From assembly GCA_900617105.1 (NCBI GenBank), contig UYFQ01000673.1, positions 1 to 64,000 on the forward strand: 64,000 nucleotides of DNA, in the 5' to 3' direction. The first letter of the stretch is position 1; every line of letters begins with the position of its first letter. Under the pieces are notes generated by a model that searched no databases, was not told where the DNA came from, and saw only the letters and a list, made by a program, of their open reading frames with translations. This stretch comes from Hydrurus foetidus. Its lineage: Eukaryota. The position numbers were made by a program, and so were the translations under genes. Below are positions 3,823 through 64,000 of this stretch, piece by piece.

Positions 3823-3854
<32 letters not shown>

Positions 3855-10532: not shown

Positions 10533-10632
10533 TATGCGGCACCGTCACCAGTCACCCATCACTGTCAATTGTCACCGAAGGCACAAGGCACATGGCTCAT
10601 ACTTCCTGAGGACACAAAATTGCTGAGAAGCG

Positions 10633-14250: not shown

Positions 14251-15318
14251 ACTCCCATGTACCATCTTCATTCTCAACAAAAACTTTATCCTTCGCAAAT
14301 GTATCTATTCTAAAAACCTCATGAGCATAACTTCTTACTATAGACATATAATTTGGACAATCTTTTCTTTTTTTCCTCTTATCTTGTGTCAAATGTTTTT
14401 GATATGCATTAACTTTTCTAATCTTTTTAGGTGGTTCTATTGTAGCATCATCAGACAACTCTTCGAAGAAAAAACTGTCGTTATTGTCAAGACCGGATGC
14501 TTGGAACAAATAGAATAAGCCAAGTTCTTCTCTATTCATATCACCAATGAATTCTTCATTACCGTTTATTAAGTTCTCATCTTGTATTTGAATGTTGTCA
14601 TTTATTTGAACTTCGTTCTCAATCATTGCTTGTGTATTTTGTATATTATGTGCTTTGCATTTTATTTTATCGAATTCTTTTCTTTTAATTATTAATTGAG
14701 GTACGCTTAATCTATTAATTTTCAATCGAATTGCAACTTTACGATGAGAAGTGAGAAAGGTACACATCAGTGCCTCAAGTACCCTAGAACGGACGTACTG
14801 ATTAGAGGTGAAGTTGGTGCCTCCAGCAGAAGATAGGGAGAGTGCTTCGATAAATGCAACAGCATATCTACAATAATTGAATCAATATTCTCAGCAGATC
14901 TTTTACATATAGCTGAGACATCCAATGATGCTCGAACCCGAGCGAAAACATGCTCTAAAAATTGAATTTTTCTTTCACTACCCCATGTAGTTTTTCGACC
15001 TGGAGTTCCTGTTGCTGTGATAGCTTTCGATATTGATGATACTATAGATTCTACTACAGGTTTGGCTATTTCATATAGCAGACTTCTCTTTATCAAAGAG
15101 TCAAAGTGCTCTGGAAGATGCACTGGTTCTTCATAAACGAGAGTCTCTGGGACTTGAATCTCAGTTGCATGACATATTCTGTCAGCAAGAAACAGCGATT
15201 CAGTACAGAAATCAGCACTCTCCCTCCTCACATCAGGAGAGACAACAAAAGCTTCCTTGCTCCTCAATTGGATTGACCGGAATCTCTTCGAACCCTTGCT
15301 CGGTTTGTAGCGCGGCAT
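14249..15318 (-). pseudogene. Two abutting ORFs (183 aa and 172 aa) of unknown function in TIR element 2, likely one broken gene
   Basis: Basic N-terminus MPRYKPSKGSKRFR; NLS-like PPKKIRK and KRKKRK; the ORFs overlap at TGATG (14767). Confidence 0.45.
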
Positions 15319-15972
15319 TATGTCTTTTTTTAAGGTACCAAAATCTCTGCAACGAGATTGAGTTAGAGCTTACAGGGCATATCAAATTCAATCAGATTTT
15401 TGCAAGGAATCGGACGACATCATCTGCATGCACATACATGGAGTGGAACATGCAGCATTTGAGGCATAAAAGCCAACATAGATTTTGAAAATTCAAAATT
15501 TTGAATTTTGAAACGGCGGTCTGGTAGATAATCGAATTACAAAACGATTCCCGTAGTTTTCAGCGAGTAAATGTCAAAATTCGTGGAGTTCTGTGTTCCT
15601 TAAAAACACGAAACCCACTGGACGACTTTGGGCGGGGGGTGGATGTGCTGACCATGCAAAGGGTCCCCGGAACGTGCTCGCAATCTTCCTCAAAAGAAGT
15701 TATTTCATTTTTTTGAAAAACTTCTTCTTCGGTCTTCTCTCAGACTACTGTACGACTTTGAAGGAAGGAGGACGAAGTCAAAACGGAAAACAAAAGTGCT
15801 GCATGTAACCGTATCGGATGTGTGATGCATCATGAGACTATGAAGGCGTCAGCTGTCATATTTGAATTCGGGATTGTACGACTGGTATTCCCCATTGTCA
15901 AACTTGCTCCTGCAGGGAACGTCGATCTCTCTGACTACTAGGAGCGGGTGCTACGAAGTTGCAATCGTCATC

Positions 15973-18900
15973 ATGACACATATGAATCTTATGTGGTTCG
16001 TGATTCTCCTCCTTGTCGCTTCAAGACCTGAACGAGCGAAAGCATACGAAGTGGCGACATTGTCCTTAGAACCAATGCGTTCGATCGGTAACTTTGCTGG
16101 GTGCGACTTTCTGTCCGATTGTTCACAAGTTGGTGTTGCGCTGGAGTCACGGATGAATAAACCGATTGCTTTAGCCTTGAGTGTTGATGGCGACCTGTTT
16201 GTAATAGAGTCGGTGACTGACAATCTTAAAGTGATCAACAACAACGGAATCATGTCTTTCATCTGCGGTGGTAAAAATAATAGCGAGGGAGATGGCCTCT
16301 TGGCACAATTCACAAAACTCTATAAGCCTCTGGGTGTCGCAGTCGATGCCTCTGGGAACATTTACATAGCTGACAATAATGTCGATCGCATCCGCAAAAT
16401 AGATGCGATCACAAAGTTCGTTAGCACTGTTGCCGGCAAAGGACCATTTGCTGGATCCCGTAGCCGTTCTTACTCAGGAGATGGTGGTCTTGCGACATCG
16501 GCGGAGCTCAACGAGCCAACGAGTGTTGCTGTTGACAAATTGGGTAACATTTACATAGCGGATAGTCAGAATTATCGCGTTAGGAAGGTCGATGTTACGA
16601 GTGGTCTGATCACTACCGTCGCAGGCAACGGATCACCTGGTTATTCAGGGGATGGAGCCAGTGCACTTTCCGCTTCCTTGAATGTCATCCACGTCGCTGT
16701 AGATACCAGTGACAATATCTACATATCCGATTCTCGTAATCATGTCGTGAGATTGGTGAGCGCGAACAGCGGAAACATTTCGACATTTGCGGGGTCTGGG
16801 GTCAGCGGCTATAATGGAGATAATATCACGGCAACGACAGCGCGACTATCCACTCCCAGGAGCGTTGCCTTTGACAATTCAGGCAATGTCTACATTGTTG
16901 ATCAGAACAACTACAGAATTCGGATGGTTTCAGCAACAACTAAATTGATCTCTACGGTCGCTGGCAACGGAGTTCGTGGTAGGAGCGAAAGCAACACAGA
17001 TGCGAGAAACTCAGAACTAGGTGGACTCGGTGGTATTGCAATCGACAGAATGGACAAAATATTTATAACAGACTTTACAAACGAAAAAGTAGTAGTTATA
17101 AAAAAAGTTCAGACGATAACTGAACCAAGTGCTGCACCTACACCATCACCGTCATCGTTGGGTGATACCAATGCACCCAGTGCTGAACCATCACCACAAC
17201 CATCGGCATCACCAACACTTGCTACCTTCCAACCATCACCATCGCCAACGGTATCACCACCACCATCGGTATCACCATCACCACAACCATCGGCATCACC
17301 AACACTTGCTACCCCCCGACCATCACCACCACCATCGGTATCACCATCACCACAACCATCGGCATCACCAACACTTGCTACCCCCCGACCATCACCATCG
17401 CCAACGGCATCACCACCACCATCGGTATCACCATCACCACAACCATCGGCATCACCAACACTTGCTACCTTCCAACCAACATCGGTACCAACGGTATCAC
17501 CACCACCATCGGTATCACCATCACCACAACCATCGGCATCACCAACACTTGCTACCCCCCGACCATCACCATCGCCAACGGTATCACCACCACCATCGGT
17601 ATCACCATCACCACAACCATCGGCATCACCAACACTTGCTACCTTCCAACCAACATCGGCACCAACGGTATCACCACCACCATCGGTATCACCATCACCA
17701 CAACCATCGGCATCACCAACACTTGCTACCTTCCAACCAACATCGGCACCAACGGTATCACCACCACCATCGGTATCACCATCACCACAACCATCGGCAT
17801 CACCAACACTTGCTACCTTCCAACCAACATCGGCACCAACGGTATCACCACCACCATCGGTATCACCATCACCACAACCATCGGCATCACCAACACTTGC
17901 TACCCCCCGACCATCACCATCGCCAACGGTATCACCACCACCATCGGTATCACCATCACCACAACCATCGGCATCACCAACACTTGCTACCTTCCAACCA
18001 TCATCGGCACCAACGGTATCACCACCACCATCGGTATCACCATCACCACAACCATCGGCATCACCAACACTTGCTACCTTCCAACCAACATCGGCACCAA
18101 CGGTATCACCACCACCATCGGTATCACCATCACCACAACCATCGGCATCACCAACACTTGCTACCTTCCAACCAACATCGGCACCAACGGTATCACCACC
18201 ACCATCGGTATCACCATCACCACAACCATCGGTATCACCATCACACAACCATCGGCATCACCAACACTTGCTACCCCCCAACCATCACCATCGCCAACGG
18301 TATCACCACCACCATCGGTATCACCATCACCACAACCATCGGCATCACCAACACTTGCTACCCCCCGACCATCACCATCGCCAACGGTATCACCACCACC
18401 ATCGGTATCACCATCACCACAACCATCGGCATCACCAACACTTGCTACCTTCCAACCAACATCGGCACCAACGGTATCACCACCACCATCGGTATCACCA
18501 TCACCACAACCATCGGCATCACCAACACTTGCTACCTTCCAACCAACATCGGCACCAACGGTATCACCACCACCATCGGTATCACCATCACCACAACCAT
18601 CGGCATCACCAACACTTGCTACCCCCCGACCATCACCATCGCCAACGGTATCACCACCACCATCGGTATCACCATCACCACAACCATCGGCATCACCAAC
18701 ACTTGCTACCCCCCGACCATCACCATCGCCAACGGTATCACCACCACCATCGGTATCACCATCACCACAACCATCGGCATCACCAACACTTGCTACCCCC
18801 CGACCATCACCATCGCCAACGGTATCACCACCACCATCGGTATCACCATCACCACAACCATCGGCATCACCAACACTTGCTACCCCCCGACCACATCATC

Positions 18901-21900
18901 GCCAACGGTATCACCACCACCATCGGTATCACCATCACCACAACCATCGGCATCACCAACACTTGCTACCCCCCGACCATCACCATCGCCAACGGTATCA
19001 CCACCACCATCGGTATCACCATCACCACAACCATCGGCATCACCAACACTTGCTACCCCCCGACCATCACCATCGCCAACGGTATCACCACCACCATCGG
19101 TATCACCATCACCACAACCATCGGCATCACCAACACTTGCTACCCCCCGACCATCACCATCGCCAACGGTATCACCACCACCATCGGTATCACCATCACC
19201 ACAACCATCGGCATCACCAACACTTGCTACCCCCCGACCATCACCATCGCCAACGGTATCACCACCACCATCGGTATCACCATCACCACAACCATCGGCA
19301 TCACCAACACTTGCTACCCCCCGACCATCACCATCGCCAACGGTATCACCACCACCATCGGTATCACCATCACCACAACCATCGGCATCACCAACACTTG
19401 CTACCCCCCGACCATCACCATCGCCAACGGTATCACCACCACCATCGGTATCACCATCACCACAACCATCGGCATCACCAACACTTGCTACCCCCCGACC
19501 ATCACCATCGCCAACGGTATCACCACCACCATCGGTATCACCATCACCACAACCATCGGCATCACCAACACTTGCTACCCCCCGACCATCACCATCGCCA
19601 ACGGTATCACCACCACCATCGGTATCACCATCACCACAACCATCGGCATCACCAACACTTGCTACCCCCCGACCATCACCATCGCCAACGGTATCACCAC
19701 CACCATCGGTATCACCATCACCACAACCATCGGCATCACCAACACTTGCTACCCCCCGACCATCACCATCGCCAACGGTATCACCACCACCATCGGTATC
19801 ACCATCACCACAACCATCGGCATCACCAACACTTGCTACCCCCCGACCATCACCATCGCCAACGGTATCACCACCACCATCGGTATCACCATCACCACAA
19901 CCATCGGCATCACCAACACTTGCTACCCCCCGACCATCACCATCGCCAACGGTATCACCACCACCATCGGTATCACCATCACCACAACCATCGGCATCAC
20001 CAACACTTGCTACCCCCCGACCATCACCATCGCCAACGGTATCACCACCACCATCGGTATCACCATCACCACAACCATCGGCATCACCAACACTTGCTAC
20101 CCCCCGACCATCACCATCGCCAACGGTATCACCACCACCATCGGTATCACCATCACCACAACCATCGGCATCACCAACACTTGCTACCCCCCGACCATCA
20201 CCATCGCCAACGGTATCACCACCACCATCGGTATCACCATCACCACAACCATCGGCATCACCAACACTTGCTACCCCCCGACCATCACCATCGCCAACGG
20301 TATCACCACCACCATCGGTATCACCATCACCACAACCATCGGCATCACCAACACTTGCTACCCCCCGACCATCACCATCGCCAACGGTATCACCACCACC
20401 ATCGGTATCACCATCACCACAACCATCGGCATCACCAACACTTGCTACCCCCCGACCATCACCATCGCCAACGGTATCACCACCACCATCGGTATCACCA
20501 TCACCACAACCATCGGCATCACCAACACTTGCTACCCCCCGACCATCACCATCGCCAACGGTATCACCACCACCATCGGTATCACCATCACCACAACCAT
20601 CGGCATCACCAACACTTGCTACCCCCCGACCATCACCATCGCCAACGGTATCACCACCACCATCGGTATCACCATCACCACAACCATCGGCATCACCAAC
20701 ACTTGCTACCCCCCGACCATCACCATCGCCAACGGTATCACCACCACCATCGGTATCACCATCACCACAACCATCGGCATCACCAACACTTGCTACCCCC
20801 CGACCATCACCATCGCCAACGGTATCACCACCACCATCGGTATCACCATCACCACAACCATCGGCATCACCAACACTTGCTACCCCCCGACCATCACCAT
20901 CGCCAACGGTATCACCACCACCATCGGTATCACCATCACCACAACCATCGGCATCACCAACACTTGCTACCCCCCGACCATCACCATCGCCAACGGTATC
21001 ACCACCACCATCGGTATCACCATCACCACAACCATCGGCATCACCAACACTTGCTACCCCCCGACCATCACCATCGCCAACGGTATCACCACCACCATCG
21101 GTATCACCATCACCACAACCATCGGCATCACCAACACTTGCTACCCCCCGACCATCACCATCGCCAACGGTATCACCACCACCATCGGTATCACCATCAC
21201 CACAACCATCGGCATCACCAACACTTGCTACCCCCCGACCATCACCATCGCCAACGGTATCACCACCACCATCGGTATCACCATCACCACAACCATCGGC
21301 ATCACCAACACTTGCTACCCCCCGACCATCACCATCGCCAACGGTATCACCACCACCATCGGTATCACCATCACCACAACCATCGGCATCACCAACACTT
21401 GCTACCCCCCGACCATCACCATCGCCAACGGTATCACCACCACCATCGGTATCACCATCACCACAACCATCGGCATCACCAACACTTGCTACCCCCCGAC
21501 CATCACCATCGCCAACGGTATCACCACCACCATCGGTATCACCATCACCACAACCATCGGCATCACCAACACTTGCTACCCCCCGACCATCACCATCGCC
21601 AACGGTATCACCACCACCATCGGTATCACCATCACCACAACCATCGGCATCACCAACACTTGCTACCCCCCGACCATCACCATCGCCAACGGTATCACCA
21701 CCACCATCGGTATCACCATCACCACAACCATCGGCATCACCAACACTTGCTACCCCCCGACCATCACCATCGCCAACGGTATCACCACCACCATCGGTAT
21801 CACCATCACCACAACCATCGGCATCACCAACACTTGCTACCCCCCGACCATCACCATCGCCAACGGTATCACCACCACCATCGGTATCACCATCACCACA

Positions 21901-24900
21901 ACCATCGGCATCACCAACACTTGCTACCCCCCGACCATCACCATCGCCAACGGTATCACCACCACCATCGGTATCACCATCACCACAACCATCGGCATCA
22001 CCAACACTTGCTACCCCCCGACCATCACCATCGCCAACGGTATCACCACCACCATCGGTATCACCATCACCACAACCATCGGCATCACCAACACTTGCTA
22101 CCCCCCGACCATCACCATCGCCAACGGTATCACCACCACCATCGGTATCACCATCACCACAACCATCGGCATCACCAACACTTGCTACCCCCCGACCATC
22201 ACCATCGCCAACGGTATCACCACCACCATCGGTATCACCATCACCACAACCATCGGCATCACCAACACTTGCTACCCCCCGACCATCACCATCGCCAACG
22301 GTATCACCACCACCATCGGTATCACCATCACCACAACCATCGGCATCACCAACACTTGCTACCCCCCGACCATCACCATCGCCAACGGTATCACCACCAC
22401 CATCGGTATCACCATCACCACAACCATCGGCATCACCAACACTTGCTACCCCCCGACCATCACCATCGCCAACGGTATCACCACCACCATCGGTATCACC
22501 ATCACCACAACCATCGGCATCACCAACACTTGCTACCCCCCGACCATCACCATCGCCAACGGTATCACCACCACCATCGGTATCACCATCACCACAACCA
22601 TCGGCATCACCAACACTTGCTACCCCCCGACCATCACCATCGCCAACGGTATCACCACCACCATCGGTATCACCATCACCACAACCATCGGCATCACCAA
22701 CACTTGCTACCCCCCGACCATCACCATCGCCAACGGTATCACCACCACCATCGGTATCACCATCACCACAACCATCGGCATCACCAACACTTGCTACCCC
22801 CCGACCATCACCATCGCCAACGGTATCACCACCACCATCGGTATCACCATCACCACAACCATCGGCATCACCAACACTTGCTACCCCCCGACCATCACCA
22901 TCGCCAACGGTATCACCACCACCATCGGTATCACCATCACCACAACCATCGGCATCACCAACACTTGCTACCCCCCGACCATCACCATCGCCAACGGTAT
23001 CACCACCACCATCGGTATCACCATCACCACAACCATCGGCATCACCAACACTTGCTACCCCCCGACCATCACCATCGCCAACGGTATCACCACCACCATC
23101 GGTATCACCATCACCACAACCATCGGCATCACCAACACTTGCTACCCCCCGACCATCACCATCGCCAACGGTATCACCACCACCATCGGTATCACCATCA
23201 CCACAACCATCGGCATCACCAACACTTGCTACCCCCCGACCATCACCATCGCCAACGGTATCACCACCACCATCGGTATCACCATCACCACAACCATCGG
23301 CATCACCAACACTTGCTACCCCCCGACCATCACCATCGCCAACGGTATCACCACCACCATCGGTATCACCATCACCACAACCATCGGCATCACCAACACT
23401 TGCACCCCCCGACCATCACCATCGCCAACGGTATCACCACCACCATCGGTATCACCATCACCACAACCATCGGCATCACCAACACTTGCTACCCCCCGAC
23501 CATCACCATCGCCAACGGTATCACCACCACCATCGGTATCACCATCACCACAACCATCGGCATCACCAACACTTGCTACCCCCCGACCATCACCATCGCC
23601 AACGGTATCACCACCACCATCGGTATCACCATCACCACAACCATCGGCATCACCAACACTTGCTACCCCCCGACCATCACCGGCGCCAACGGTATCACCA
23701 CCACCATCGGTATCACCATCACCATCAACCATCGGCACCACCAACACTTGCTACCATCGCCCCGGTCACCACCATCGGTATCACCATCCACCATCGTCAC
23801 CATCACTATCACCATCAGCATCACCAACGCCTACCCCCCACCATCGGTATCACCATCGGTATCACCACCACCATCGGTATCACCATCACCACAAGCGGCA
23901 TCCCAACACTGCTACCATCGGTATCACCATCGCCAACGGTATCACCACCACCATCGGTATCACCATCACCACAACCATCGGCATCACCAACACTTGCACC
24001 ATCGGTATCACCATCGCCAGGTCACCACCACCATCGGTATCACCATCACCACAACCATCGGCATCACCAACACTTGCTACCCCCCGACCATCACCATCGC
24101 CAACGTATCATCACCACCATCGGTATCACCATCACCACAAATCGGCATCACCAACACTGCACCATCGGTATCACCATCGCAGTCATCACCACCATCGGTA
24201 TCACCATCACCACAACCATCGGCATCACCAACACTTGCTACCCGCGACCATACCTGCACCATCGGTATCACCATCGCACCATCGTCACCATCGGTATCAC
24301 CATCAGCATAAGCGGCGCCCCTAGTGCTGCACCATCGACCATCACCATCGCAGGTCATCACCACCATCGGTATCACCATCACCACAACCATCGGCATCAC
24401 CAACACTTGCTACCCCCCGACCATCACCATCGCCAACGGTATCACCACCACCATCGGTATCACCATCACCACAACCATCGGCATCACCAACACTTGCTAC
24501 CCCCCGACCATCACCATCGCCAACGGTATCACCACCACCATCGGTATCACCATCAGTTGTACCATCGGCGCCCCAACACTTGCACCATCGGTATCACCAT
24601 CGCCAACGGTATCACCACCACCATCGGTATCACCATCACCACAACCATCGGCGCCACCAAGTGCTGCACCATCGGTATCACCATCGCCAGGTATCATCGT
24701 CACCATCGGTATCACCGTCAGTTGTACCCGGCGCCCCTAGTGCTGCACCATCGGTATCACCATCGCAGTCATCGTCACCATCGGTATCACCGTCAGTTGT
24801 AAGCGGCGCCCCTAGTGCTGCACCATCGGTATCACCATCGCAGTCATCGTCACCATCGGTATCACCGTCAGTTGTAAGCGGCGCCCCTAGTGCTGCACCA

Positions 24901-27900
24901 TCGGTATCACCATCGCAGTCATCGTCACCATCGGTATCACCGTCAGTTGTAAGCGGCGCCCCTAGTGCTGCACCATCGGTATCACCATCGCAGTCATCGT
25001 CACCATCGGTATCACCGTCAGTTGTAAGCGGCGCCCCTAGTGCTGCACCATCGGTATCACCATCGCAGTCATCGTCACCATCGGTATCACCGTCAGTTGT
25101 AAGCGGCGCCCCTAGTGCTGCACCATCGGTATCACCATCGCAGTCATCGTCACCATCGGTATCACCGTCAGTTGTAAGCGGCGCCCCTAGTGCTGCACCA
25201 TCGGTATCACCATCGCAGTCATCGTCACCATCGGTATCACCGTCAGTTGTAAGCGGCGCCCCTAGTGCTGCACCATCGGTATCACCATCGCAGTCATCGT
25301 CACCATCGGTATCACCGTCAGTTGTAAGCGGCGCCCCTAGTGCTGCACCATCGGTATCACCATCGCAGTCATCGTCACCATCGGTATCACCGTCAGTTGT
25401 AAGCGGCGCCCCTAGTGCTGCACCATCGGTATCACCATCGCAGTCATCGTCACCATCGGTATCACCGTCAGTTGTAAGCGGCGCCCCTAGTGCTGCACCA
25501 TCGGTATCACCATCGCAGTCATCGTCACCATCGGTATCACCGTCAGTTGTAAGCGGCGCCCCTAGTGCTGCACCATCGGTATCACCATCGCAGTCATCGT
25601 CACCATCGGTATCACCGTCAGTTGTAAGCGGCGCCCCTAGTGCTGCACCATCGGTATCACCATCGCAGTCATCGTCACCATCGGTATCACCGTCAGTTGT
25701 AAGCGGCGCCCCTAGTGCTGCACCATCGGTATCACCATCGCAGTCATCGTCACCATCGGTATCACCGTCAGTTGTAAGCGGCGCCCCTAGTGCTGCACCA
25801 TCGGTATCACCATCGCAGTCATCGTCACCATCGGTATCACCGTCAGTTGTAAGCGGCGCCCCTAGTGCTGCACCATCGGTATCACCATCGCAGTCATCGT
25901 CACCATCGGTATCACCGTCAGTTGTAAGCGGCGCCCCTAGTGCTGCACCATCGGTATCACCATCGCAGTCATCGTCACCATCGGTATCACCGTCAGTTGT
26001 AAGCGGCGCCCCTAGTGCTGCACCATCGGTATCACCATCGCAGTCATCGTCACCATCGGTATCACCGTCAGTTGTAAGCGGCGCCCCTAGTGCTGCACCA
26101 TCGGTATCACCATCGCAGTCATCGTCACCATCGGTATCACCGTCAGTTGTAAGCGGCGCCCCTAGTGCTGCACCATCGGTATCACCATCGCAGTCATCGT
26201 CACCATCGGTATCACCGTCAGTTGTAAGCGGCGCCCCTAGTGCTGCACCATCGGTATCACCATCGCAGTCATCGTCACCATCGGTATCACCGTCAGTTGT
26301 AAGCGGCGCCCCTAGTGCTGCACCATCGCAGTCATCGTCACCATCGGTATCACCGTCAGTTGTAAGCGGCGCCCCTAGTGCTGCACCATCGGTATCACCA
26401 TCGCAGTCATCGTCACCATCGGTATCACCGTCAGTTGTAAGCGGCGCCCCTAGTGCTGCACCATCGGTATCACCATCGCAGTCATCGTCACCATCGGTAT
26501 CACCGTCAGTTGTAAGCGGCGCCCCTAGTGCTGCACCATCGGTATCACCATCGCAGTCATCGTCACCATCGGTATCACCGTCAGTTGTAAGCGGCGCCCC
26601 TAGTGCTGCACCATCGGTATCACCATCGCAGTCATCGTCACCATCGGTATCACCGTCAGTTCGTATCACCGTCAGTTGTAAGCGGCGCCCCTAGTGCTGC
26701 ACCATCGGTATCACCATCGCAGTCATCGTCACCATCGGTATCACCGTCAGTTGTAAGCGGCGCCCCTAGTGCTGCACCATCGGTATCACCATCGCAGTCA
26801 TCGTCACCATCGGTATCACCGTCAGTTGTAAGCGGCGCCCCTAGTGCTGCACCATCGGTATCACCATCGCAGTCATCGTCACCATCGGTATCACCGTCAG
26901 TTGTAAGCGGCGCCCCTAGTGCTGCACCATCGGTATCACCATCGCAGTCATCGTCACCATCGGTATCACCGTCAGTTGTAAGCGGCGCCCCTAGTGCTGC
27001 ACCATCGGTATCACCATCGCAGTCATCGTCACCATCGGTATCACCGTCAGTTGTAAGCGGCGCCCCTAGTGCTGCACCATCGGTATCACCATCGCAGTCA
27101 TCGTCACCATCGGTATCACCGTCAGTTGTAAGCGGCGCCCCTAGTGCTGCACCATCGGTATCACCATCGCAGTCATCGTCACCATCGGTATCACCGTCAG
27201 TTGTAAGCGGCGCCCCTAGTGCTGCACCATCGGTATCACCATCGCAGTCATCGTCACCATCGGTATCACCGTCAGTTGTAAGCGGCGCCCCTAGTGCTGC
27301 ACCATCGGTATCACCATCGCAGTCATCGTCACCATCGGTATCACCGTCAGTTGTAAGCGGCGCCCCTAGTGCTGCACCATCGGTATCACCATCGCAGTCA
27401 TCGTCACCATCGGTATCACCGTCAGTTGTAAGCGGCGCCCCTAGTGCTGCACCATCGGTATCACCATCGCAGTCATCGTCACCATCGGTATCACCGTCAG
27501 TTGTAAGCGGCGCCCCTAGTGCTGCACCATCGGTATCACCATCGCAGTCATCGTCACCATCGGTATCACCGTCAGTTGTAAGCGGCGCCCCTAGTGCTGC
27601 ACCATCGGTATCACCATCGCAGTCATCGTCACCATCGGTATCACCGTCAGTTGTAAGCGGCGCCCCTAGTGCTGCACCATCGGTATCACCATCGCAGTCA
27701 TCGTCACCATCGGTATCACCGTCAGTTGTAAGCGGCGCCCCTAGTGCTGCACCATCGGTATCACCATCGCAGTCATCGTCACCATCGGTATCACCGTCAG
27801 TTGTAAGCGGCGCCCCTAGTGCTGCACCATCGGTATCACCATCGCAGTCATCGTCACCATCGGTATCACCGTCAGTTGTAAGCGGCGCCCCTAGTGCTGC

Positions 27901-51900: not shown

Positions 51901-54900
51901 CAGTCATCGTCACCATCGGTATCACCGTCAGTTGTAAGCGGCGCCCCTAGTGCTGCACCATCGGTATCACCATCGCAGTCATCGTCACCATCGGTATCAC
52001 CGTCAGTTGTAAGCGGCGCCCCTAGTGCTGCACCATCGGTATCACCATCGCAGTCATCGTCACCATCGGTATCACCGTCAGTTGTAAGCGGCGCCCCTAG
52101 TGCTGCACCATCGGTATCACCATCGCAGTCATCGTCACCATCGGTATCACCGTCAGTTGTAAGCGGCGCCCCTAGTGCTGCACCATCGGTATCACCATCG
52201 CAGTCATCGTCACCATCGGTATCACCGTCAGTTGTAAGCGGCGCCCCTAGTGCTGCACCATCGGTATCACCATCGCAGTCATCGTCACCATCGGTATCAC
52301 CGTCAGTTGTAAGCGGCGCCCCTAGTGCTGCACCATCGGTATCACCATCGCAGTCATCGTCACCATCGCGTCATCGTCACCATCCAGTCACCGTCAGTTG
52401 TAAGCGGCGCCCCTAGTGCTGCACCATCGGTATCACCATCGCAGTCATCGTCACCATCGGTATCACCGTCAGTTGTAAGCGGCGCCCCTAGTGCTGCACC
52501 ATCGGTATCACCATCGCAGTCATCGTCACCATCGGTATCACCGTCAGTTGTAAGCGGCGCCCCTAGTGCTGCACCATCGGTATCACCATCGCAGTCATCG
52601 TCACCATCGGTATCACCGTCAGTTGTAAGCGGCGCCCCTAGTGCTGCACCATCGGTATCACCATCGCAGTCATCGTCACCATCGGTATCACCGTCAGTTG
52701 TAAGCGGCGCCCCTAGTGCTGCACCATCGGTATCACCATCGCAGTCATCGTCACCATCGGTATCACCATCACACAGCTCATCGCTCACCATCGTATCACC
52801 GTCAGTTGTAAGCGGCGCCCCTGCTGCACCATCGGTATACCATCGCAGTCATCGTCACCATCGGTATCACCATCAGTCATCGTCACCATCGGTATCACCG
52901 TCAGTTGTAAGCGGCGCCCCTAGTGCTGCACCATCGGTATCACCATCGCAGTCATCGTCACCATCGGTATCACCGTCAGTTGTAAGCGGCGCCCCTAGTG
53001 CTGCACCATCGGTATCACCATCGCAGTCATCGTCACCATCGGTATCACCGTCAGTTGTAAGCGGCGCCCCTAGTGCTGCACCATCGGTATCACCATCGCA
53101 GTCATCGTCACCATCGGTATCACCATCGCAGTCATCGTCACCATCGGTATCACCGTCAGTTGTAAGCGGCGCCCCTAGTGCTGCACCATCGGTATCACCA
53201 TCGCAGTCATCGTCACCATCGGTATCACCGTCAGTTGTAAGCGGCGCCCCTAGTGCTGCACCATCGGTATCACCATCGCAGTCATCGTCACCATCGGTAT
53301 CACCGTCAGTTGTAAGCGGCGCCCCTAGTGCTGCACCATCGGTATCACCATCGCAGTCATCGTCACCATCGGTATCACCGTCAGTTGTAAGCGGCGCCCC
53401 TAGTGCTGCACCATCGGTATCACCATCGCAGTCATCGTCACCATCGGTATCACCGTCAGTTGTAAGCGGCGCCCCTAGTGCTGCACCATCGGTATCACCA
53501 TCGCAGTCATCGTCACCATCGGTATCACCGTCAGTTGTAAGCGGCGCCCCTAGTGCTGCACCATCGGTATCACCATCGCAGTCATCGTCACCATCGGTAT
53601 CACCGTCAGTTGTAAGCGGCGCCCCTAGTGCTGCACCATCGGTATCACCATCGCAGTCATCGTCACCATCGGTATCACCGTCAGTTGTAAGCGGCGCCCC
53701 TAGTGCTGCACCATCGGTATCACCATCGCAGTCATCGTCACCATCGGTATCACCATCACAGTCATCGTCACCATCGGTATCACCGTCAGTTGTAAGCGGC
53801 GCCCCTAGTGCTGCACCATCGGTATCACCATCGCAGTCATCGTCACCATCGGTATCACCGTCAGTTGTAAGCGGCGCCCCTAGTGCTGCACCATCGGTAT
53901 CACCATCGCAGTCATCGTCACCATCGGTATCACCGTCAGTTGTAAGCGGCGCCCCTAGTGCTGCACCATCGGTATCACCATCGCAGTCATCGTCACCATC
54001 GGTATCACCGTCAGTTGTAAGCGGCGCCCCTAGTGCTGCACCATCGGTATCACCATCGCAGTCATCGTCACCATCGGTATCACCGTCAGTTGTAAGCGGC
54101 GCCCCTAGTGCTGCACCATCGGTATCACCATCGCAGTCATCGTCACCATCGGTATCACCGTCAGTTGTAAGCGGCGCCCCTAGTGCTGCACCATCGGTAT
54201 CACCATCGCAGTCATCGTCACCATCGGTATCACCGTCAGTTGTAAGCGGCGCCCCTAGTGCTGCACCATCGGTATCACCATCGCAGTCATCGTCACCATC
54301 GGTATCACCATCACAGTCATCGTCACCATCGGTATCACCGTCAGTGTAAGCGGCGCCCCTAGTGCTCACCATCGGTATCACCATCGCAGTCATCGTCACC
54401 ATCGGTATCACCGTCAGTTGTAAGCGGTGCCCCTAGTGTTGCACCATCGGTATCACCATCGCAGTCATCGTCACCATCGGTATCACCGTCAGTTGTAAGC
54501 GGCGCCCCTAGTGCTGCACCATCGGTATCACCATCGCAGTCATCGTCACCATCGGTAACACCGTCAGTTGTAAGCGGCGCCCTAGTGCTGCACCATCGGT
54601 ATCACCATCGCAGTCATCGTCACCATCGGCATCACCGTCAGTTGTAAGCGGCGCCCCTAGTGCTGCACCATCGGTATCACCATCGCAGTCATCGTCACCA
54701 TCGGTATCACCGTCAGCTGTAAGCGGCGCCCCTAGTGATGCACCATCGGTATCACCATCGCAGTCATCGTCACCATCGGTATCACCATCACAGTCATCGT
54801 CACCATCGGTATCACCATCGCAGTCATCGTCACCATCGGTATCACCGTCAGTTGTAAGCGGCGCCCCTAGTGCTGCACCATCGGTATCACCATCGCAGTC

Positions 54901-57900
54901 ATCGTCACCATCGGTATCACCGTCAGTTGTAAGCGGCGCCCCTAGTGCTGCACCATCGGTATCACCATCGCAGTCATCGTCACCATCGGTATCACCGTCA
55001 GTTGTAAGCGGCGCCCCTAGTGCTGCACCATCGGTATCACCATCGCAGTCATCGTCACCATCGGTATCACCGTCAGTTGTAAGCGGCGCCCCTAGTGCTG
55101 CACCATCGGTATCACCATCGCAGTCATCGTCACCATCGGTATCACCGTCAGTTGTAAGCGGCGCCCCTAGTGCTGCACCATCGGTATCACCATCGCAGTC
55201 ATCGTCACCATCGGTATCACCGTCAGTTGTAAGCGGCGCCCCTAGTGCTGCACCATCGGTATCACCATCGCAGTCATCGTCACCATCGGTATCACCGTCA
55301 GTTGTAAGCGGCGCCCCTAGTGCTGCACCATCGGTATCACCATCGCAGTCATCGTCACCATCGGTATCACCGTCAGTTGTAAGCGGCGCCCCTAGTGCTG
55401 CACCATCGGTATCACCATCGCAGTCATCGTCACCATCGGTATCACCGTCAGTTGTAAGCGGCGCCCCTAGTGCTGCACCATCGGTATCACCATCGCAGTC
55501 ATCGTCACCATCGGTATCACCGTCACAGTCATCGTCACCATCGGTATCACCGTCAGTTGTAAGCGGCGCCCCTAGTGCTGCACCATCGGTATCACCATCG
55601 CAGTCATCGTCACCATCGGTATCACCGTCAGTTGTAAGCGGCGCCCCTAGTGCTGCACCATCGGTATCACCATCGCAGTCATCGTCACCATCGGTATCAC
55701 CGTCAGTTGTAAGCGGCGCCCCTAGTGCTGCACCATCGGTATCACCATCGCAGTCATCGTCACCATCGGTATCACCGTCAGTTGTAAGCGGCGCCCCTAG
55801 TGCTGCACCATCGGTATCACCATCGCAGTCATCGTCACCATCGGTATCACCGTCAGTTGTAAGCGGCGCCCCTAGTGCTGCACCATCGGTATCACCATCG
55901 CAGTCATCGTCACCATCGGTATCACCGTCAGTTGTAAGCGGCGCCCCTAGTGCTGCACCATCGGTATCACCATCGCAGTCATCGTCACCATCGGTATCAC
56001 CGTCAGTTGTAAGCGGCGCCCCTAGTGCTGCACCATCGGTATCACCATCGCAGTCATCGTCACCATCGGTATCACCGTCAGTTGTAAGCGGCGCCCCTAG
56101 TGCTGCACCATCGGTATCACCATCGCAGTCATCGTCACCATCGGTATCACCGTCAGTTGTAAGCGGCGCCCCTAGTGCTGCACCATCGGTATCACCATCG
56201 CAGTCATCGTCACCATCGGTATCACCATCGCAGTCATCGTCACCATCGGTATCACCGTCAGTTGTAAGCGGCGCCCCTAGTGCTGCACCATCGGTATCAC
56301 CATCGCAGTCATCGTCACCATCGGTATCACCGTCAGTTGTAAGCGGCGCCCCTAGTGCTGCACCATCGGTATCACCATCGCAGTCATCGTCACCATCGGT
56401 ATCACCGTCAGTTGTAAGCGGCGCCCCTAGTGCTGCACCATCGGTATCACCATCGCAGTCATCGTCACCATCGGTATCACCGTCAGTTGTAAGCGGCGCC
56501 CCTAGTGCTGCACCATCGGTATCACCATCGCAGTCATCGTCACCATCGGTATCACCGTCAGTTGTAAGCGGCGCCCCTAGTGCTGCACCATCGGTATCAC
56601 CATCGCAGTCATCGTCACCATCGGTATCACCGTCAGTTGTAAGCGGCGCCCCTAGTGCTGCACCATCGGTATCACCATCGCAGTCATCGTCACCATCGGT
56701 ATCACCGTCAGTTGTAAGCGGCGCCCCTAGTGCTGCACCATCGGTATCACCATCGCAGTCATCGTCACCATCGGTATCACCGTCAGTTGTAAGCGGCGCC
56801 CCTAGTGCTGCACCATCGGTATCACCATCGCAGTCATCGTCACCATCGGTATCACCATCACAGTCATCGTCACCATCGGTATCACCGTCAGTTGTAAGCG
56901 GCGCCCCTAGTGCTGCACCATCGGTATCACCATCGCAGTCATCGTCACCATCGGTATCACCGTCAGTTGTAAGCGGCGCCCCTAGTGCTGCACCATCGGT
57001 ATCACCATCGCAGTCATCGTCACCATCGGTATCACCGTCAGTTGTAAGCGGCGCCCCTAGTGCTGCACCATCGGTATCACCATCGCAGTCATCGTCACCA
57101 TCGGTATCACCGTCAGTTGTAAGCGGCGCCCCTAGTGCTGCACCATCGGTATCACCATCGCAGTCATCGTCACCATCGGTATCACCGTCAGTTGTAAGCG
57201 GCGCCCCTAGTGCTGCACCATCGGTATCACCATCGGTATCACCGTCATTCGCAAGCGAGGCACCCAGTGCTGAGCCATCACAGTCACCATCGGAATCACC
57301 GTCATTCGCAAGCGAGGCACCCAGTGCTGAGCCATCACAGTCACCATCGGAATCACCGTCATTCGCAAGCGAGGCACCCAGTGCTGAGCCATCACAGTCA
57401 CCATCGGAATCACCGTCATTCGCAAGCGAGGCACCCAGTGCTGAGCCATCACAGTCACCATCGGAATCACCGTCATTCGCAAGCGAGGCACCCAGTGCTG
57501 AGCCATCACAGTCACCATCGGAATCACCGTCATTCGCAAGCGAGGCACCCAGTGCTGAGCCATCACAGTCACCATCATCACCAGTTGCAAGCGAGGCACC
57601 CAGTGCTGAGCCATCACAGTCACCATCGGAATCACCGTCATTCGCAAGCGAGGCACCCAGTGCTGAGCCATCACAGTCACCATCGGAATCACCGTCATTC
57701 GCAAGCGGGGCACCCAGTGCTGAGCCATCACAGTCACCATCGGAATCACCGTCATTCGCAAGCGAGGCACCCAGTGCTGAGCCATCACAGTCACCATCGG
57801 AATCACCGTCATTCGCAAGCGAGGCACCCAGTGCTGAGCCATCACAGTCACCATCGGAATCACCGTCATTCGCAAGCGAGGCACCCAGTGCTGAGCCATC

Positions 57901-60900
57901 ACAGTCACCATCGGAATCACCGTCATTCGCAAGCGAGGCACCCAGTGCTGAGCCATCACAGTCACCATCGGAATCACCGTCATTCGCAAGCGAGGCACCC
58001 AGTGCTGAGCCATCACAGTCACCATCGGAATCACCGTCATTCGCAAGCGAGGCACCCAGTGCTGAGCCATCACAGTCACCATCGGAATCACCGTCATTCG
58101 CAAGCGAGGCACCCAGTGCTGAGCCATCACAGTCACCATCGGAATCACCGTCATTCGCAAGCGAGGCACCCAGTGCTGAGCCATCACAGTCACCATCGGA
58201 ATCACCGTCATTCGCAAGCGAGGCACCCAGTGCTGAGCCATCACAGTCACCATCGGAATCACCGTCATTCGCAAGCGAGGCACCCAGTGCTGAGCCATCA
58301 CAGTCACCATCGGAATCACCGTCATTCGCAAGCGAGGCACCCAGTGCTGAGCCATCACAGTCACCATCGGAATCACCGTCATTCGCAAGCGAGGCACCCA
58401 GTGCTGAGCCATCACAGTCACCATCGGAATCACCGTCATTCGCAAGCGAGGCACCCAGTGCTGAGCCATCACAGTCACCATCGGAATCACCGTCATTCGC
58501 AAGCGAGGCACCCAGTGCTGAGCCATCACAGTCACCATCGGAATCACCGTCATTCGCAAGCGAGGCACCCAGTGCTGAGCCATCACAGTCACCATCGGAA
58601 TCACCGTCATTCGCAAGCGAGGCACCCAGTGCTGAGCCATCACAGTCACCATCGGAATCACCGTCATTCGCAAGCGAGGCACCCAGTGCTGAGCCATCAC
58701 AGTCACCATCGGAATCACCGTCATTCGCAAGCGAGGCACCCAGTGCTGAGCCATCACAGTCACCATCGGAATCACCGTCATTCGCAAGCGAGGCACCCAG
58801 TGCTGAGCCATCACAGTCACCATCGGAATCACCGTCATTCGCAAGCGAGGCACCCAGTGCTGAGCCATCACAGTCACCATCGGAATCACCGTCATTCGCA
58901 AGCGAGGCACCCAGTGCTGAGCCATCACAGTCACCATCGGAATCACCGTCATTCGCAAGCGAGGCACCCAGTGCTGAGCCATCACAGTCACCATCGGAAT
59001 CACCGTCATTCGCAAGCGAGGCACCCAGTGCTGAGCCATCACAGTCACCATCGGAATCACCGTCATTCGCAAGCGAGGCACCCAGTGCTGAGCCATCACA
59101 GTCACCATCGGAATCACCGTCATTCGCAAGCGAGGCACCCAGTGCTGAGCCATCACAGTCACCATCGGAATCACCGTCATTCGCAAGCGAGGCACCCAGT
59201 GCTGAGCCATCACAGTCACCATCGGAATCACCGTCATTCGCAAGCGAGGCACCCAGTGCTGAGCCATCACAGTCACCATCGGAATCACCGTCATTCGCAA
59301 GCGAGGCACCCAGTGCTGAGCCATCACAGTCACCATCGGAATCACCGTCATTCGCAAGCGAGGCACCCAGTGCTGAGCCATCACAGTCACCATCGGAATC
59401 ACCGTCATTCGCAAGCGAGGCACCCAGTGCTGAGCCATCACAGTCACCATCGGAATCACCGTCATTCGCAAGCGAGGCACCCAGTGCTGAGCCATCACAG
59501 TCACCATCGGAATCACCGTCATTCGCAAGCGAGGCACCCAGTGCTGAGCCATCACAGTCACCATCGGAATCACCGTCATTCGCAAGCGAGGCACCCAGTG
59601 CTGAGCCATCACAGTCACCATCGGAATCACCGTCATTCGCAAGCGAGGCACCCAGTGCTGAGCCATCACAGTCACCATCGGAATCACCGTCATTCGCAAG
59701 CGAGGCACCCAGTGCTGAGCCATCACAGTCACCATCGGAATCACCGTCATTCGCAAGCGAGGCACCCAGTGCTGAGCCATCACAGTCACCATCGGAATCA
59801 CCGTCATTCGCAAGCGAGGCACCCAGTGCTGAGCCATCACAGTCACCATCGGAATCACCGTCATTCGCAAGCGAGGCACCCAGTGCTGAGCCATCACAGT
59901 CACCATCGGAATCACCGTCATTCGCAAGCGAGGCACCCAGTGCTGAGCCATCACAGTCACCATCGGAATCACCGTCATTCGCAAGCGAGGCACCCAGTGC
60001 TGAGCCATCACAGTCACCATCGGAATCACCGTCATTCGCAAGCGAGGCACCCAGTGCTGAGCCATCACAGTCACCATCGGAATCACCGTCATTCGCAAGC
60101 GAGGCACCCAGTGCTGAGCCATCACAGTCACCATCGGAATCACCGTCATTCGCAAGCGAGGCACCCAGTGCTGAGCCATCACAGTCACCATCGGAATCAC
60201 CGTCATTCGCAAGCGAGGCACCCAGTGCTGAGCCATCACAGTCACCATCGGAATCACCGTCATTCGCAAGCGAGGCACCCAGTGCTGAGCCATCACAGTC
60301 ACCATCGGAATCACCGTCATTCGCAAGCGAGGCACCCAGTGCTGAGCCATCACAGTCACCATCGGAATCACCGTCATTCGCAAGCGAGGCACCCAGTGCT
60401 GAGCCATCACAGTCACCATCGGAATCACCGTCATTCGCAAGCGAGGCACCCAGTGCTGAGCCATCACAGTCACCATCGGAATCACCGTCATTCGCAAGCG
60501 AGGCACCCAGTGCTGAGCCATCACAGTCACCATCGGAATCACCGTCATTCGCAAGCGAGGCACCCAGTGCTGAGCCATCACAGTCACCATCGGAATCACC
60601 GTCATTCGCAAGCGAGGCACCCAGTGCTGAGCCATCACAGTCACCATCGGAATCACCGTCATTCGCAAGCGAGGCACCCAGTGCTGAGCCATCACAGTCA
60701 CCATCGGAATCACCGTCATTCGCAAGCGAGGCACCCAGTGCTGAGCCATCACAGTCACCATCGGAATCACCGTCATTCGCAAGCGAGGCACCCAGTGCTG
60801 AGCCATCACAGTCACCATCGGAATCACCGTCATTCGCAAGCGAGGCACCCAGTGCTGAGCCATCACAGTCACCATCGGAATCACCGTCATTCGCAAGCGA

Positions 60901-63544
60901 GGCACCCAGTGCTGAGCCATCACAGTCACCATCGGAATCACCGTCATTCGCAAGCGAGGCACCCAGTGCTGAGCCATCACAGTCACCATCGGAATCACCG
61001 TCATTCGCAAGCGAGGCACCCAGTGCTGAGCCATCACAGTCACCATCGGAATCACCGTCATTCGCAAGCGAGGCACCCAGTGCTGAGCCATCACAGTCAC
61101 CATCGGAATCACCGTCATTCGCAAGCGAGGCACCCAGTGCTGAGCCATCACAGTCACCATCGGAATCACCGTCATTCGCAAGCGAGGCACCCAGTGCTGA
61201 GCCATCACAGTCACCATCGGAATCACCGTCATTCGCAAGCGAGGCACCCAGTGCTGAGCCATCACAGTCACCATCGGAATCACCGTCATTCGCAAGCGAG
61301 GCACCCAGTGCTGAGCCATCACAGTCACCATCGGAATCACCGTCATTCGCAAGCGAGGCACCCAGTGCTGAGCCATCACAGTCACCATCGGAATCACCGT
61401 CATTCGCAAGCGATGCACCCAGTGCTGAGCCATCACAGTCACCATCGGAATCACCGTCATTCGCAAGCGAGGCACCCAGTGCTGAGCCATCACAGTCACC
61501 ATCGGAATCACCGTCATTCGCAAGCGAGGCACCCAGTGCTGAGCCATCACAGTCACCATCGGAATCACCGTCATTCGCAAGCGAGGCACCCAGTGCTGAG
61601 CCATCACAGTCACCATCGGAATCACCGTCATTCGCAAGCGAGGCACCCAGTGCTGAGCCATCACAGTCACCATCGGAATCACCGTCATTCGCAAGCGAGG
61701 CACCCAGTGCTGAGCCATCACAGTCACCATCGGAATCACCGTCATTCGCAAGCGAGGCACCCAGTGCTGAGCCATCACAGTCACCATCGGAATCACCGTC
61801 ATTCGCAAGCGAGGCACCCAGTGCTGAGCCATCACAGTCACCATCGGAATCACCGTCATTCGCAAGCGAGGCACCCAGTGCTGAGCCATCACAGTCACCA
61901 TCGGAATCACCGTCATTCGCAAGCGAGGCACCCAGTGCTGAGCCATCACAGTCACCATCGGAATCACCGTCATTCGCAAGCGAGGCACCCAGTGCTGAGC
62001 CATCACAGTCACCATCGGAATCACCGTCATTCGCAAGCGAGGCACCCAGTGCTGAGCCATCACAGTCACCATCGGAATCACCGTCATTCGCAAGCGAGGC
62101 ACCCAGTGCTGAGCCATCACAGTCACCATCGGAATCACCGTCATTCGCAAGCGAGGCACCCAGTGCTGAGCCATCACAGTCACCATCATCACCAGGTGAG
62201 GGCGAGGTACCCAGTGCTGAGCCATCACAGTCACCATCATCACCAGGTGAGGGCGAGGTACCCAGTGCTGAGCCATCACAGTCACCATCATCACCAGGTG
62301 AGGGTGAGGTACCTAGTGCTGAGCCATCACAGTCACCATCATCACCAGGTGAGGGCGAGGTACCTAGTGCTGAGCCATCACAGTCACCATCATCACCAGG
62401 TGAGGGCGAGGTACCCAGCGCTGAGCCATCACAGTCACCATCATCACCAGGTGAGGGCGAGGTACCTAGTGCTGAGCCATCACAGTCACCATCATCACCA
62501 GGTGAGGGCGAGGTACCTAGTGCTGAGCCATCACAGTCACCATCATCACCAGGTGAGGGCGAGGCACCTAGTGCTGAGCCATCACAGTCACCATCATCAC
62601 CAGGTGAGGGCGAGGTACCTAGTGCTGAGCCATCACAGTCACCATCATCACCAGGTGAGGGCGAGGTACCTAGTGCTGAGCCATCACAGTCACCATCATC
62701 ACCAGGTGAGGGCGAGGTACCTAGTGCTGAGCCATCACAGTCACCATCATCACCAGGTGAGGGTGAGGTACCTAGTGCTGAGCCATCACAGTCACCATCA
62801 TCACCAGGTGAGGGCGAGGTACCTAGTGCTGAGCCATCACAGTCACCATCATCACCAGGTGAGGGCGAGGTACCTAGTGCTGAGCCATCACAGTCACCAT
62901 CATCACCAGGTGAGGGCGAGGTACCCAGTGCTGAGCCATCACAGTCACCATCATCACCAGGTGAGGGCGAGGTACCTAGTGCTGAGCCATCACAGTCACC
63001 ATCATCACCAGGTGAGGGCGAGGTACCTAGTGCTGAGCCATCACAGTCACCATCATCACCAGGTGAGGGCGAGGTACCTAGTGCTGAGCCATCACAGTCA
63101 CCATCATCACCAGGTGAGGGCGAGGTACCTAGTGCTGAGCCATCACAGTCACCATCATCACCAGGTGAGGGCGAGGTACCTAGTGCTGAGCCATCACAGT
63201 CACCATCATCACCAGGTGAGGGCGAGGTACCTAGTGCTGAGCCATCACAGTCACCATCATCACCAGGTGATATTAATGCGCCCATCTTCGCACCTTCTTT
63301 TGAATTCCCGTCTTCTCGACCTTCTTTTCGTTCTTCGTCCCCCACGTCTAACGTCACTAACATCCGTCAGAATGTAGCTGTGAACCAAAGAAATACATTT
63401 TTGAGTGATGATAAGACCAGAACTTATTTCATCGTAGGAACGTCTATTGGATCGTTCGTACTCTTGGTTCTGTGTGCACTAATAGCTGTCAAATATTGTG
63501 CATCTCCCTGTTGCTCTCCGAAAACCATTGAGGAGATAATCTGA
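15973..63544 (+). CDS. Giant mucin-like type I membrane protein (about 15,850 aa): signal peptide, NHL beta-propeller, Ser/Pro repeat stalk, TM helix, short tail; frame interrupted by indels in the repeats
   Basis: ATG at 15973/15982 followed by WFVILLLVA...AKA. The NHL region runs in frame into the SP repeats. All repeat units are multiples of 3 with a stop-free SP frame. The last block runs in frame into ...[41 protein letters not shown], with TGA at 63542-63544. Confidence 0.85.
16156..17106 (+). other. Six NHL repeats (six-bladed beta-propeller)
   Basis: Six blades such as [26 protein letters not shown] and [26 protein letters not shown], with STVAGNG..YSGDG linkers. Confidence 0.93.
17188..23720 (+). 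repeat. Coding repeat block A: 87 bp, 29 aa ([29 protein letters not shown]), about 75 copies
   Basis: Same phase at 18961 and 20701 (20 x 87). An FQPTSA variant occurs in the 5' copies. Confidence 0.97.
24730..57240 (+). repeat. Coding repeat block B: 75 bp, 25 aa ([25 protein letters not shown]), roughly 430 copies
   Basis: The pattern recurs every 300 bp (4 x 75) and is nearly invariant over 32.5 kb. Confidence 0.97.
57241..62180 (+). repeat. Coding repeat block C: 57 bp, 19 aa ([19 protein letters not shown]), about 87 copies
   Basis: Unit TCGGAATCACCGTCATTCGCAAGCGAGGCACCCAGTGCTGAGCCATCACAGTCACCA. Confidence 0.97.
62181..63270 (+). repeat. Coding repeat block D: 51 bp, 17 aa ([17 protein letters not shown]), about 21 copies
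   Basis: Same phase at 62221 and 63241 (20 x 51). Variation is mostly synonymous (CCC/CCT, GGC/GGT, AGT/AGC). Confidence 0.97.
63425..63490 (+). other. Predicted transmembrane helix of the giant protein
   Basis: [22 protein letters not shown] (22 aa) followed by Lys. Confidence 0.88.
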
Positions 63545-64000
63545 AACTTAAACTTCGAAAATGTTTCTCCTATGTGGACTGTACAAAGTAAAATCGCGAT
63601 TCTTATTATGACAAAAACAGTGAATAATTGGGGGTGTAATTTCACGGAAATTCAAATGTCGTAATAGATCTCGTCTATCACAATCATAACACTTTAAGTG
63701 ACTACACAATTATCAAAGCAGACCGAGGGCGTTGCACACTACACTGCCAAATGAGAACAAAAATGTCACGGTACTTTTTTGAAGATTCTTGTTTGAATGT
63801 CAATTTTTTAGAAATAGTTTTATAAATATTTGAGTAGAAATTGCCGTGATAAATCAGACTACTTTGATACACCTTATTGTACCACCGAAAATAGATCACG
63901 TGCAATACTTCTGTTCGTGTCCAGGATAGCTACTTTAGTAGGCTTCTTTATATTAGACAAATGAAATTTATTATTTATCAATTAAATTTTGCGTAATTTC

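Follow-up and report, generated by a model that had tools for sequence, protein, structure and literature searches.

A transcribed mucin-like locus of Hydrurus foetidus combining an NHL propeller, a very long Ser/Pro repeat stalk, and a predicted membrane anchor

Introduction

Very long surface proteins and fibrils built on repeats rich in Pro, Thr, and Ser (PTS) have been described from several eukaryotes, and they are introduced here as far as the portions of the cited papers covered by our search allow. In the diatom Craspedostauros australis, the adhesive trail protein CaTrailin4 is encoded by a gene of 28,951 bp that is predicted to be intron-free, and its 894-kDa product is ~70% PTS (bioRxiv 10.1101/2023.03.06.531300). 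The freshwater glycofibril TLP-4 is built of tetrapeptide motifs that advance 12.4 A per four residues; it is presented there without a known gene, head, or anchor, and the longest PSxx/PTxx protein listed in the same paper has 6,077 aa and 667 motifs (PMC11725842). In the Chlamydomonas mastigoneme, MST3 is one membrane-tethered chain of 8,572 aa, and its glycosylated Pro-rich repeats determine how long a surface filament becomes, with 133 nm reported for 429 residues (PMC11015965). Human MUC16 is a type I transmembrane mucin of 22,152 aa with a giant Ser/Thr/Pro ectodomain and a short tail, encoded by a 179-kb gene (PMC11101557), and the NHL domain of teneurins and bacterial teneurin-like proteins (PDB 9IFO/9PT5) is a six-bladed propeller (PMC13018210). 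Here, we describe a locus from Hydrurus foetidus (Eukaryota), at 15973..63544 (+) of the first 64,000 nucleotides of contig UYFQ01000673.1 (assembly GCA_900617105.1; this whole stretch is hereafter the window), in which a signal peptide, an NHL propeller, four Ser/Pro repeat blocks (A-B-C-D, ~46 kb with their flanking units), a transmembrane (TM) helix, and a stop follow one another in one orientation. A preliminary description, made from the sequence alone, had read the locus as a single-exon gene for one protein of ~15,850 aa. We estimate a probability of roughly 0.6 that it is one gene encoding a giant type I membrane mucin-like glycoprotein of ~10,000-16,000 aa that acts as a long-reach adhesive tether.

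Results

A signal peptide and a six-bladed propeller lead into the repeats

The reading frame opens with a start codon at 15973 and a predicted signal peptide (aa 1-24, 15973..16044) ending in an A-K-A cleavage-like site, so that the N-terminal signal peptide of a type I transmembrane mucin-like glycoprotein is present as judged by hydropathy and an A-x-A motif. It is followed by a predicted six-bladed NHL beta-propeller of the teneurin/bacterial type (16078..17106), over which RNA depth is 1.3-1.5. Pfam matches this unique end with TEN_NHL (2e-28) and NHL (2.8e-26), and the N-terminal 396 aa hold four N-glycosylation sequons. Folding from the single sequence gave a predicted local distance difference test score (pLDDT) of only 38.5, and the AlphaFold2 model used here was built on an alignment of 50 sequences; it has 24 strands in six blades, with a pLDDT of 93.1 and a predicted template modeling score of 0.92. 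The best Foldseek match of this model is 9IFO (E 4e-31, TMq 0.84, 35% identity), and 9IFO/9PT5, the NHL domain of the bacterial teneurin-like proteins, is the top PDB match by sequence (4e-57) as well as by fold. Ser/Pro repeats follow the propeller directly and in frame, as the preliminary description had claimed for the signal peptide and the six blades.

Searches with the head recovered NHL proteins of a generic kind (~30-53% identity), those with names being bacterial, and the ESM Atlas gave bacterial NHL clusters only, under 0.9. A Ser/Pro/Thr-rich tail was present in 4 of 238 NHL homologues, none of these four having a TM segment, and an NHL domain with a Ser/Pro/Thr-rich stretch occurred in 1 of 72 metagenome loci (67% GC). 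Four metagenome proteins (P0043, P0058, P0093, and P0127), 44-51% identical to the head, carry very regular NHL blades followed by Ser/Pro/Thr tails and possibly represent a eukaryote family of NHL-plus-stalk proteins. Judging from these four database proteins, which pair NHL blades with short tails, the combination of head and stalk is not unique to the locus. DNA of the NHL region is found in sequencing runs of one organism and in others from freshwater, sediment, biofilm, and air samples; the read analysis below draws on four of these runs (X1, X7, X21, and X22).

The last repeat frame exits into a predicted transmembrane helix

At the far end, the Ser/Pro frame that is open from 54512 (the final uninterrupted stretch, 54512-63541, 3,010 aa) leaves the repeats into unique sequence, as previously claimed. 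This sequence comprises a juxtamembrane linker with one N-glycosylation sequon (63281..63427), a predicted TM helix with a Kyte-Doolittle value of 2.5 over 19 aa (63428..63490), and a 17-residue tail with three cysteines that ends in a TGA stop at 63542-63544 (63491..63544). The domain check proposed in the preliminary description thus returned NHL at the N-terminal end and no Pfam family in 63245-63541, and the CAA/pAdhesive_15 domain of the diatom trailins was absent from the Pfam matches of both unique ends. When the C-terminal 92 aa were searched against 1.84 billion representatives, the one match was a repetitive sesame protein that aligned at the hydrophobic helix only and was rejected as spurious.

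The stalk is a zoned array of related repeats

The stalk begins with a 17-aa unit ending in GDTNA (17125..17175), which is identical at 36 of 51 nt to the last unit at 63230-63280. Across the three + frames, the motif GD.NAP occurs only at 17161 and 63266, in these first and last units, as expected for one array grown from inside. Block A (17187..23652) consists of 74 parsed 87-nt units (29 aa; 37% Pro, 27% Ser, and 11% Thr), three of them frame-breaking. All three + frames are open over 17187-24320, the other two reading His-rich and Thr/Ile-rich repeats, and a real frameshift within A would therefore meet no stop before B-type sequence. Block B (24736..57205) spans 32 kb, two thirds of the length of the locus, in 423 parsed units of 75 nt (25 aa; 44% Ser and 20% Pro), which include 390 identical 75-mers, 13 in-frame 105-nt variants, and 12 frame-breaking units; here, the Ser/Pro frame is the sole open + frame. 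A clean in-frame B/C hybrid unit leads into block C (the two together 57206..62158), with 86 acidic units, 85 of them of 57 nt (19 aa), and zero frame breaks. Block D (62159..63280) has 21 acidic units of 51 nt (17 aa) and the terminal GDINA unit, likewise without a frame break, and 8 of the 9 substitution events between its units are synonymous. The C/D transition is as clean and in frame as that from B to C.

No stop occurs in the Ser/Pro frame in any of the 589 in-frame units. The blocks align to one another at 61-78%, and because they share ancestry, their unit lengths do not count as separate tests. Over 14,511 in-frame residues, the stalk is 65% Ser, Pro, and Thr; its repeat units contain no Lys, Cys, or Asn, and 2,920 P[S/T]xx motifs, running 2-5 at a time before the four-residue register breaks, cover 80% of the in-frame residues. 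The long PTS-rich tandem repeat domain of a type I mucin-like glycoprotein is present in this sense. The periods of nearby, probably non-coding arrays in the window are 152 and 31.

RNA reads of one strand come from both ends and from blocks A, C, and D

Transcription was assessed in two RNA runs from one culture sample (X21 and X22; oligo-dT, with 6 in 100 of the reads used) and in a wild metatranscriptome (X7), the latter compared as contigs, as was a DNA-like run (X1). In X21 and X22, all depth at both ends of the locus is first-mate-minus. This orientation corresponds to + strand RNA in most stranded libraries. Depth in X22 starts in bin 15840-15935, X21 and X22 have no RNA in the 15 upstream bins (14400-15839) or past 63790, and same-strand depth of 1-4 as far as bin 63763-63790 marks a transcribed 3' untranslated region (63545..63790, end approximate). 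Unique depth in the two runs is 1.28 and 1.52 at the 5' end and 1.21 and 1.57 at the 3' end, values that correspond to ~23 and ~9 read-equivalents, respectively, and depth over the linker in X21 declines from 9.3 to 1.1 as far as 63398. Block A reaches a depth of 62-83 on one unit and one strand, and one D/C unit reaches 51-75, with C-type loose ends in both runs. In X7, depth is 2.6-5.4 over the NHL region, 3.8 at the 3' end, and 349.5 on a contig of block C, and the ratios of repeat to unique depth correspond to 35-72 copies of A-major, 65-134 of C, and 17-35 of D, vs 64, 85, and 18 in the window. Blocks A, C, and D are transcribed from the same strand as the NHL region and the 3' end, and their depths are those expected of tens of copies in each transcript. 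To this extent, the earlier claim that the apparent satellite DNA is a coding stalk is supported, with block B lying outside the read evidence.

The A reads of X21 and X22 imply a block A of 8.7 kb (5-17 kb) in the transcript vs 6.5-7.5 kb assembled, and its true length may exceed the assembled one. Among the A joints listed, which leave out rarer ones, the period is 63, 69, or 87 nt in all 106 of the 106 reads with letters between; for D joints, it is 51 or 102. No skip-type joint is listed at either end in X21 or X22, which agrees with the proposed single exon as far as ~23 and ~9 read-equivalents can speak for it. The proposed check of RNA coverage and strand accordingly yielded the same strand at the NHL region, A, C, D, and the 3' end, together with a gap over the TM codons.

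The assembled frame is broken, outside the A/B junction mostly by unique events

The single continuous frame of the preliminary description does not stand. None of the three + frames is open over the whole locus, the Ser/Pro register from the ATG at 15973 is kept only to ~18238, and the literal open reading frame stops at 24322-24324 after 2,783 aa (NHL, ~370 Ser/Pro residues, and then the His-rich and Thr/Ile-rich frames), so that the N-terminal and C-terminal coding ends sit in different window frames. The continuous gene is a reconstruction and not a direct observation in the assembled sequence. Outside the A/B junction, there are 15 frame-breaking units, 13 of them seen once, whereas 12 of the 20 in-frame length variants recur exactly. 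One-base losses account for 10 of the 15 (three of them in a C run), and the remainder are insertions or deletions of 14-31 nt, several of which look like incomplete copies of the 30-nt insert found in the 105-nt B variant. Of the breaks, eleven are located in 44.3-54.6 kb, and the final 8.65 kb beside the unique 3' end are free of them. Taken together, these patterns suggest that the breaks are likely consensus errors.

The A/B junction (23653..24735, 1.1 kb) is the weakest link of the gene model. In this mosaic, words specific to A are interleaved with words specific to B and with unassignable sequence, and it looks like a consensus of A-carrying and B-carrying reads. Such a mosaic can originate at a true junction, from alleles or collapsed copies out of register, or from a false join of two 70%-alike arrays.

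From start to end, the locus has 47,569 nt, or 15,856 codons, and a length of ~15,850 aa is valid only if all frame breaks are errors and the array length is correct. The length of the stretch from 26.7 to 44.3 kb is unanchored because these 17.6 kb of block B hold only two variant units and, between 29.1 and 44.3 kb, two uninterrupted series of perfect units, 107 and 94 in number.

One gene is favored over the alternatives

Transcription of both ends and of three blocks (A, C, and D) from a single strand, with equal depth at the two unique ends, makes one gene likely. Several observations pull the other way. The assembly carries 32 register switches in the Ser/Pro frame, 14 of them at 23650-24740, and the A/B junction is not clean, unlike B/C and C/D. 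A TM helix and a short tail are present at the C-terminus, yet the frame that would join them to the head is broken in the assembly and no read in any of the three RNA runs falls on the TM codons (63399-63510), although a 96-bp read gap also lies inside the NHL region in both raw RNA runs. An intron over the TM codons would account for the first gap, but it is not supported, as the first covered bases are preceded by GAG rather than YAG and there is no splice joint among those listed. The read evidence covers the NHL region, A, C, D, and the 3' end and not block B, and no reads linking A to B were found at the two ends examined. Equal 5' and 3' depth after oligo-dT selection is unusual for a 47-kb mRNA. 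On the coding side, a shuffled unit is stop-free with a chance of ~0.5, so that stop-free units alone are weak coding evidence, and the 7 codon changes between block A units are all non-synonymous. A search with the block B peptide gave 49 candidates and none at E <= 10, and the database searches yielded no relative that combines head, stalk, and anchor in a single chain. In X1, summed depth is 13-15 for D, 104-118 for C, and 269-307 for A-major vs 20, 86, and 64-130 simulated, summed contig depth not being a copy number, and between X1 and the window, 8 of 689 letters are different at the 3' end (63294-63982) and 0 of 1,569 in the 5' NHL contig. RNA reads carry four of the eight X1 3' alleles that depart from the window.

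The best placed alternative holds that the assembler joined two genes at the A/B mosaic, one for a secreted or separately anchored protein of NHL and block A and the other for a B-C-D-TM protein with another N-terminus. The A and B arrays align at 70% and have ten 11-mers in common, which is enough for a false overlap, and interleaved A and B words over 1.1 kb, oligo-dT runs without 3' bias, and the unequal divergence of the two ends from X1 would all follow. However, two alleles ~12 A units apart would yield the same mosaic at a true junction, the matching first and last units hold the only two GD.NAP motifs, both halves are equally expressed in culture and in the wild sample, and X1 has each of the unique ends in single copy (depth 136 and 119). 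We consider two genes unlikely on balance.

Somewhat less probable still is a product of the same architecture that is far shorter (<~10,000 aa), block B having been over-expanded in assembly or partly removed from the mRNA. The near absence of variants from 17.6 kb of B, the position of B outside the read measurements, and the flat RNA depth, which suits a shorter mRNA, leave room for this. Even without the whole stretch of 26.7-44.3 kb, however, ~9,990 aa are left, 12 of the 13 in-frame 105-nt variants, which serve as markers, are irregularly spaced over the remaining 44.3-57.2 kb, and B meets C in a clean in-frame hybrid; in general, assemblers collapse such arrays more often than they expand them.

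That the breaks are real, leaving a broken allele or a 2,783-aa unanchored product with the remainder an untranslated relic, is what the literal sequence says and what indels from array slippage could bring about, but it is very improbable given that the breaks are one-off, gather where read placement fails, and do not occur near the unique 3' end, that the listed RNA joints all have periods divisible by 3, that the unique C-terminus is intact with its TM helix and tail, and that D substitutions are mostly synonymous. One anchored protein from NHL to TM, as first proposed, is therefore still the likely reading, qualified by the garbled A/B junction and the uncovered TM codons.

The surrounding window

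The window is eukaryotic, since it contains a chromodomain Ty3/gypsy element and oligo-dT RNA over the locus. The style of the repeats would fit an ochrophyte alga, which accords with PMC11725842. That element (289-5195, -) has reverse transcriptase, RNase H, integrase, and chromodomain, with pol split over two frames near 1880-1890. A 318-aa frame with RGG-rich ends at 7202-8158 (-), with a Pfam match below threshold only, is presumably gag-like, judging by its appearance. A 31-nt array lies at 10373-10536, and a tandem array of 16.3 units of 152 nt (98% matches) at 11777-14250 is likely non-coding because it has stops in all frames when looped. Multi-copy DNA at 14400-15670 (depth 550-1,630 vs 136 in X1) shows no RNA, and because divergent copies of this DNA end at ~15635-15677, ~300 bp upstream of the ATG, a repeated element abuts the promoter.

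Discussion

If the locus is one gene, the signal peptide would send the chain into the endoplasmic reticulum, the propeller, whose fold is predicted with high confidence, would fold at the tip of the filament, and the helix and Cys-rich tail are predicted to hold the chain in the plasma membrane. The composition of the stalk suggests dense O-glycosylation and a surface location, and by analogy with TLP-4 and MST3, it would be proline-hydroxylated and O-glycosylated and kept extended at ~0.31 nm per residue. Such a stalk would form a filament of 3-5 micrometres, with 15,400 residues giving 4.8 micrometres. The 4-5 micrometres put forward earlier fit the rise of polyproline II-type filaments in the portions of the papers covered (PMC11015965, PMC11725842) and hold only if the length does. 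Along this filament, block A would be Pro-rich and stiff near the tip, B neutral and Ser-rich in the middle, and C and D acidic near the membrane. The most likely job, suggested by the trailins and by teneurin-type heads, would be that of an adhesive tether whose propeller binds substrate, mucilage, or another cell beyond the cell coat. A bolder version, in which a single uninterrupted 47.5-kb exon encodes a 15,850-residue anchored glycofibril of ~4.8 micrometres with a bacterial-type NHL tip and zoned chemistry, is possible but less likely than not; it would be the longest protein of the PSxx type seen so far and would give the gene-less freshwater glycofibril class a source in culture.

Whole giant genes can hide in repeat-masked "satellite", and here, sense RNA from the repeats of blocks A, C, and D is found at the level seen for the domains on either side. 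An unbroken chain would extend for several micrometres, perhaps matching the width of the cell; its gene would be 1.6 times as long as that of CaTrailin4, and its PSxx motifs would be about four times as numerous as in the longest protein that the covered text lists for TLP-4-like fibrils. For a type of freshwater glycofibril that is so far known only as a structure, the chain would provide a sequence, a tip domain to raise antibodies against, and an anchor, and it would open to testing the way in which protists make tethers of micrometre length out of a single polypeptide.

The literature on NHL repeats, algae, and adhesins, searched with subscription papers mostly outside its range, yielded no description of a protein that unites such a head, stalk, and anchor. 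The preliminary statement that no such gene is described holds in this form for the architecture and not for the kind, which is known from the 28,951-bp gene of CaTrailin4, predicted to be intronless. Like the locus, CaTrailin4 and Ca5609, both adhesive trail proteins, have a giant gene, PTS repeats, a signal peptide, a bacterial-type folded domain, and assembly trouble, as far as the preprint was covered; their head is a CAA domain rather than NHL, the locus is up to 1.6 times longer than the CaTrailin4 gene, and the membrane anchor predicted here is not described for either in the text covered (bioRxiv 10.1101/2023.03.06.531300). TLP-4 resembles the locus in its freshwater source and in its P[S/T]xx tetrapeptides (or the [S/T]Pxx that define the class), which number ~2,920 here vs 667 in the longest protein listed in the covered text (PMC11725842), and the breaks in the four-residue register every 2-5 motifs set the locus apart from a strict TLP-4 helix. 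Cores of the TLP-4 type are further characterized by doubly glycosylated 3,4-dihydroxyproline. MST3 is likewise a single giant membrane-tethered chain with a repeat filament; in the part of its description covered, it has polyproline runs, C-type lectin and Ig-like domains, a PKD2-like channel anchor, and multiple exons, whereas the locus has Ser-rich units, a tip propeller, and a single helix, with neither polyproline runs nor a PKD2-like domain.

The NHL domain agrees with the six-bladed propeller of teneurins. An FN-plug and a YD-repeat shell are lacking in the locus, where Ser/Pro repeats come right after NHL with no other Pfam family, and the type I topology is unlike that of teneurins, which indicates from the predicted sequence that the product is not a teneurin. 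MUC16 has SEA modules and many exons. No SEA, EGF, or similar juxtamembrane module of the MUC1/4/16 type is found in the Pfam search of the locus, and MUC16 is without an N-terminal propeller; what the two share, in the text covered on MUC16, is type I topology, a giant Ser/Thr/Pro ectodomain, and a short tail, a likeness of plan that implies no homology. With titin at ~40,000 aa in the text covered, the product falls well short of the largest proteins. Seen against these systems, this very large mucin-like locus is real and expressed; its kind is known, whereas its combination of parts is undescribed.

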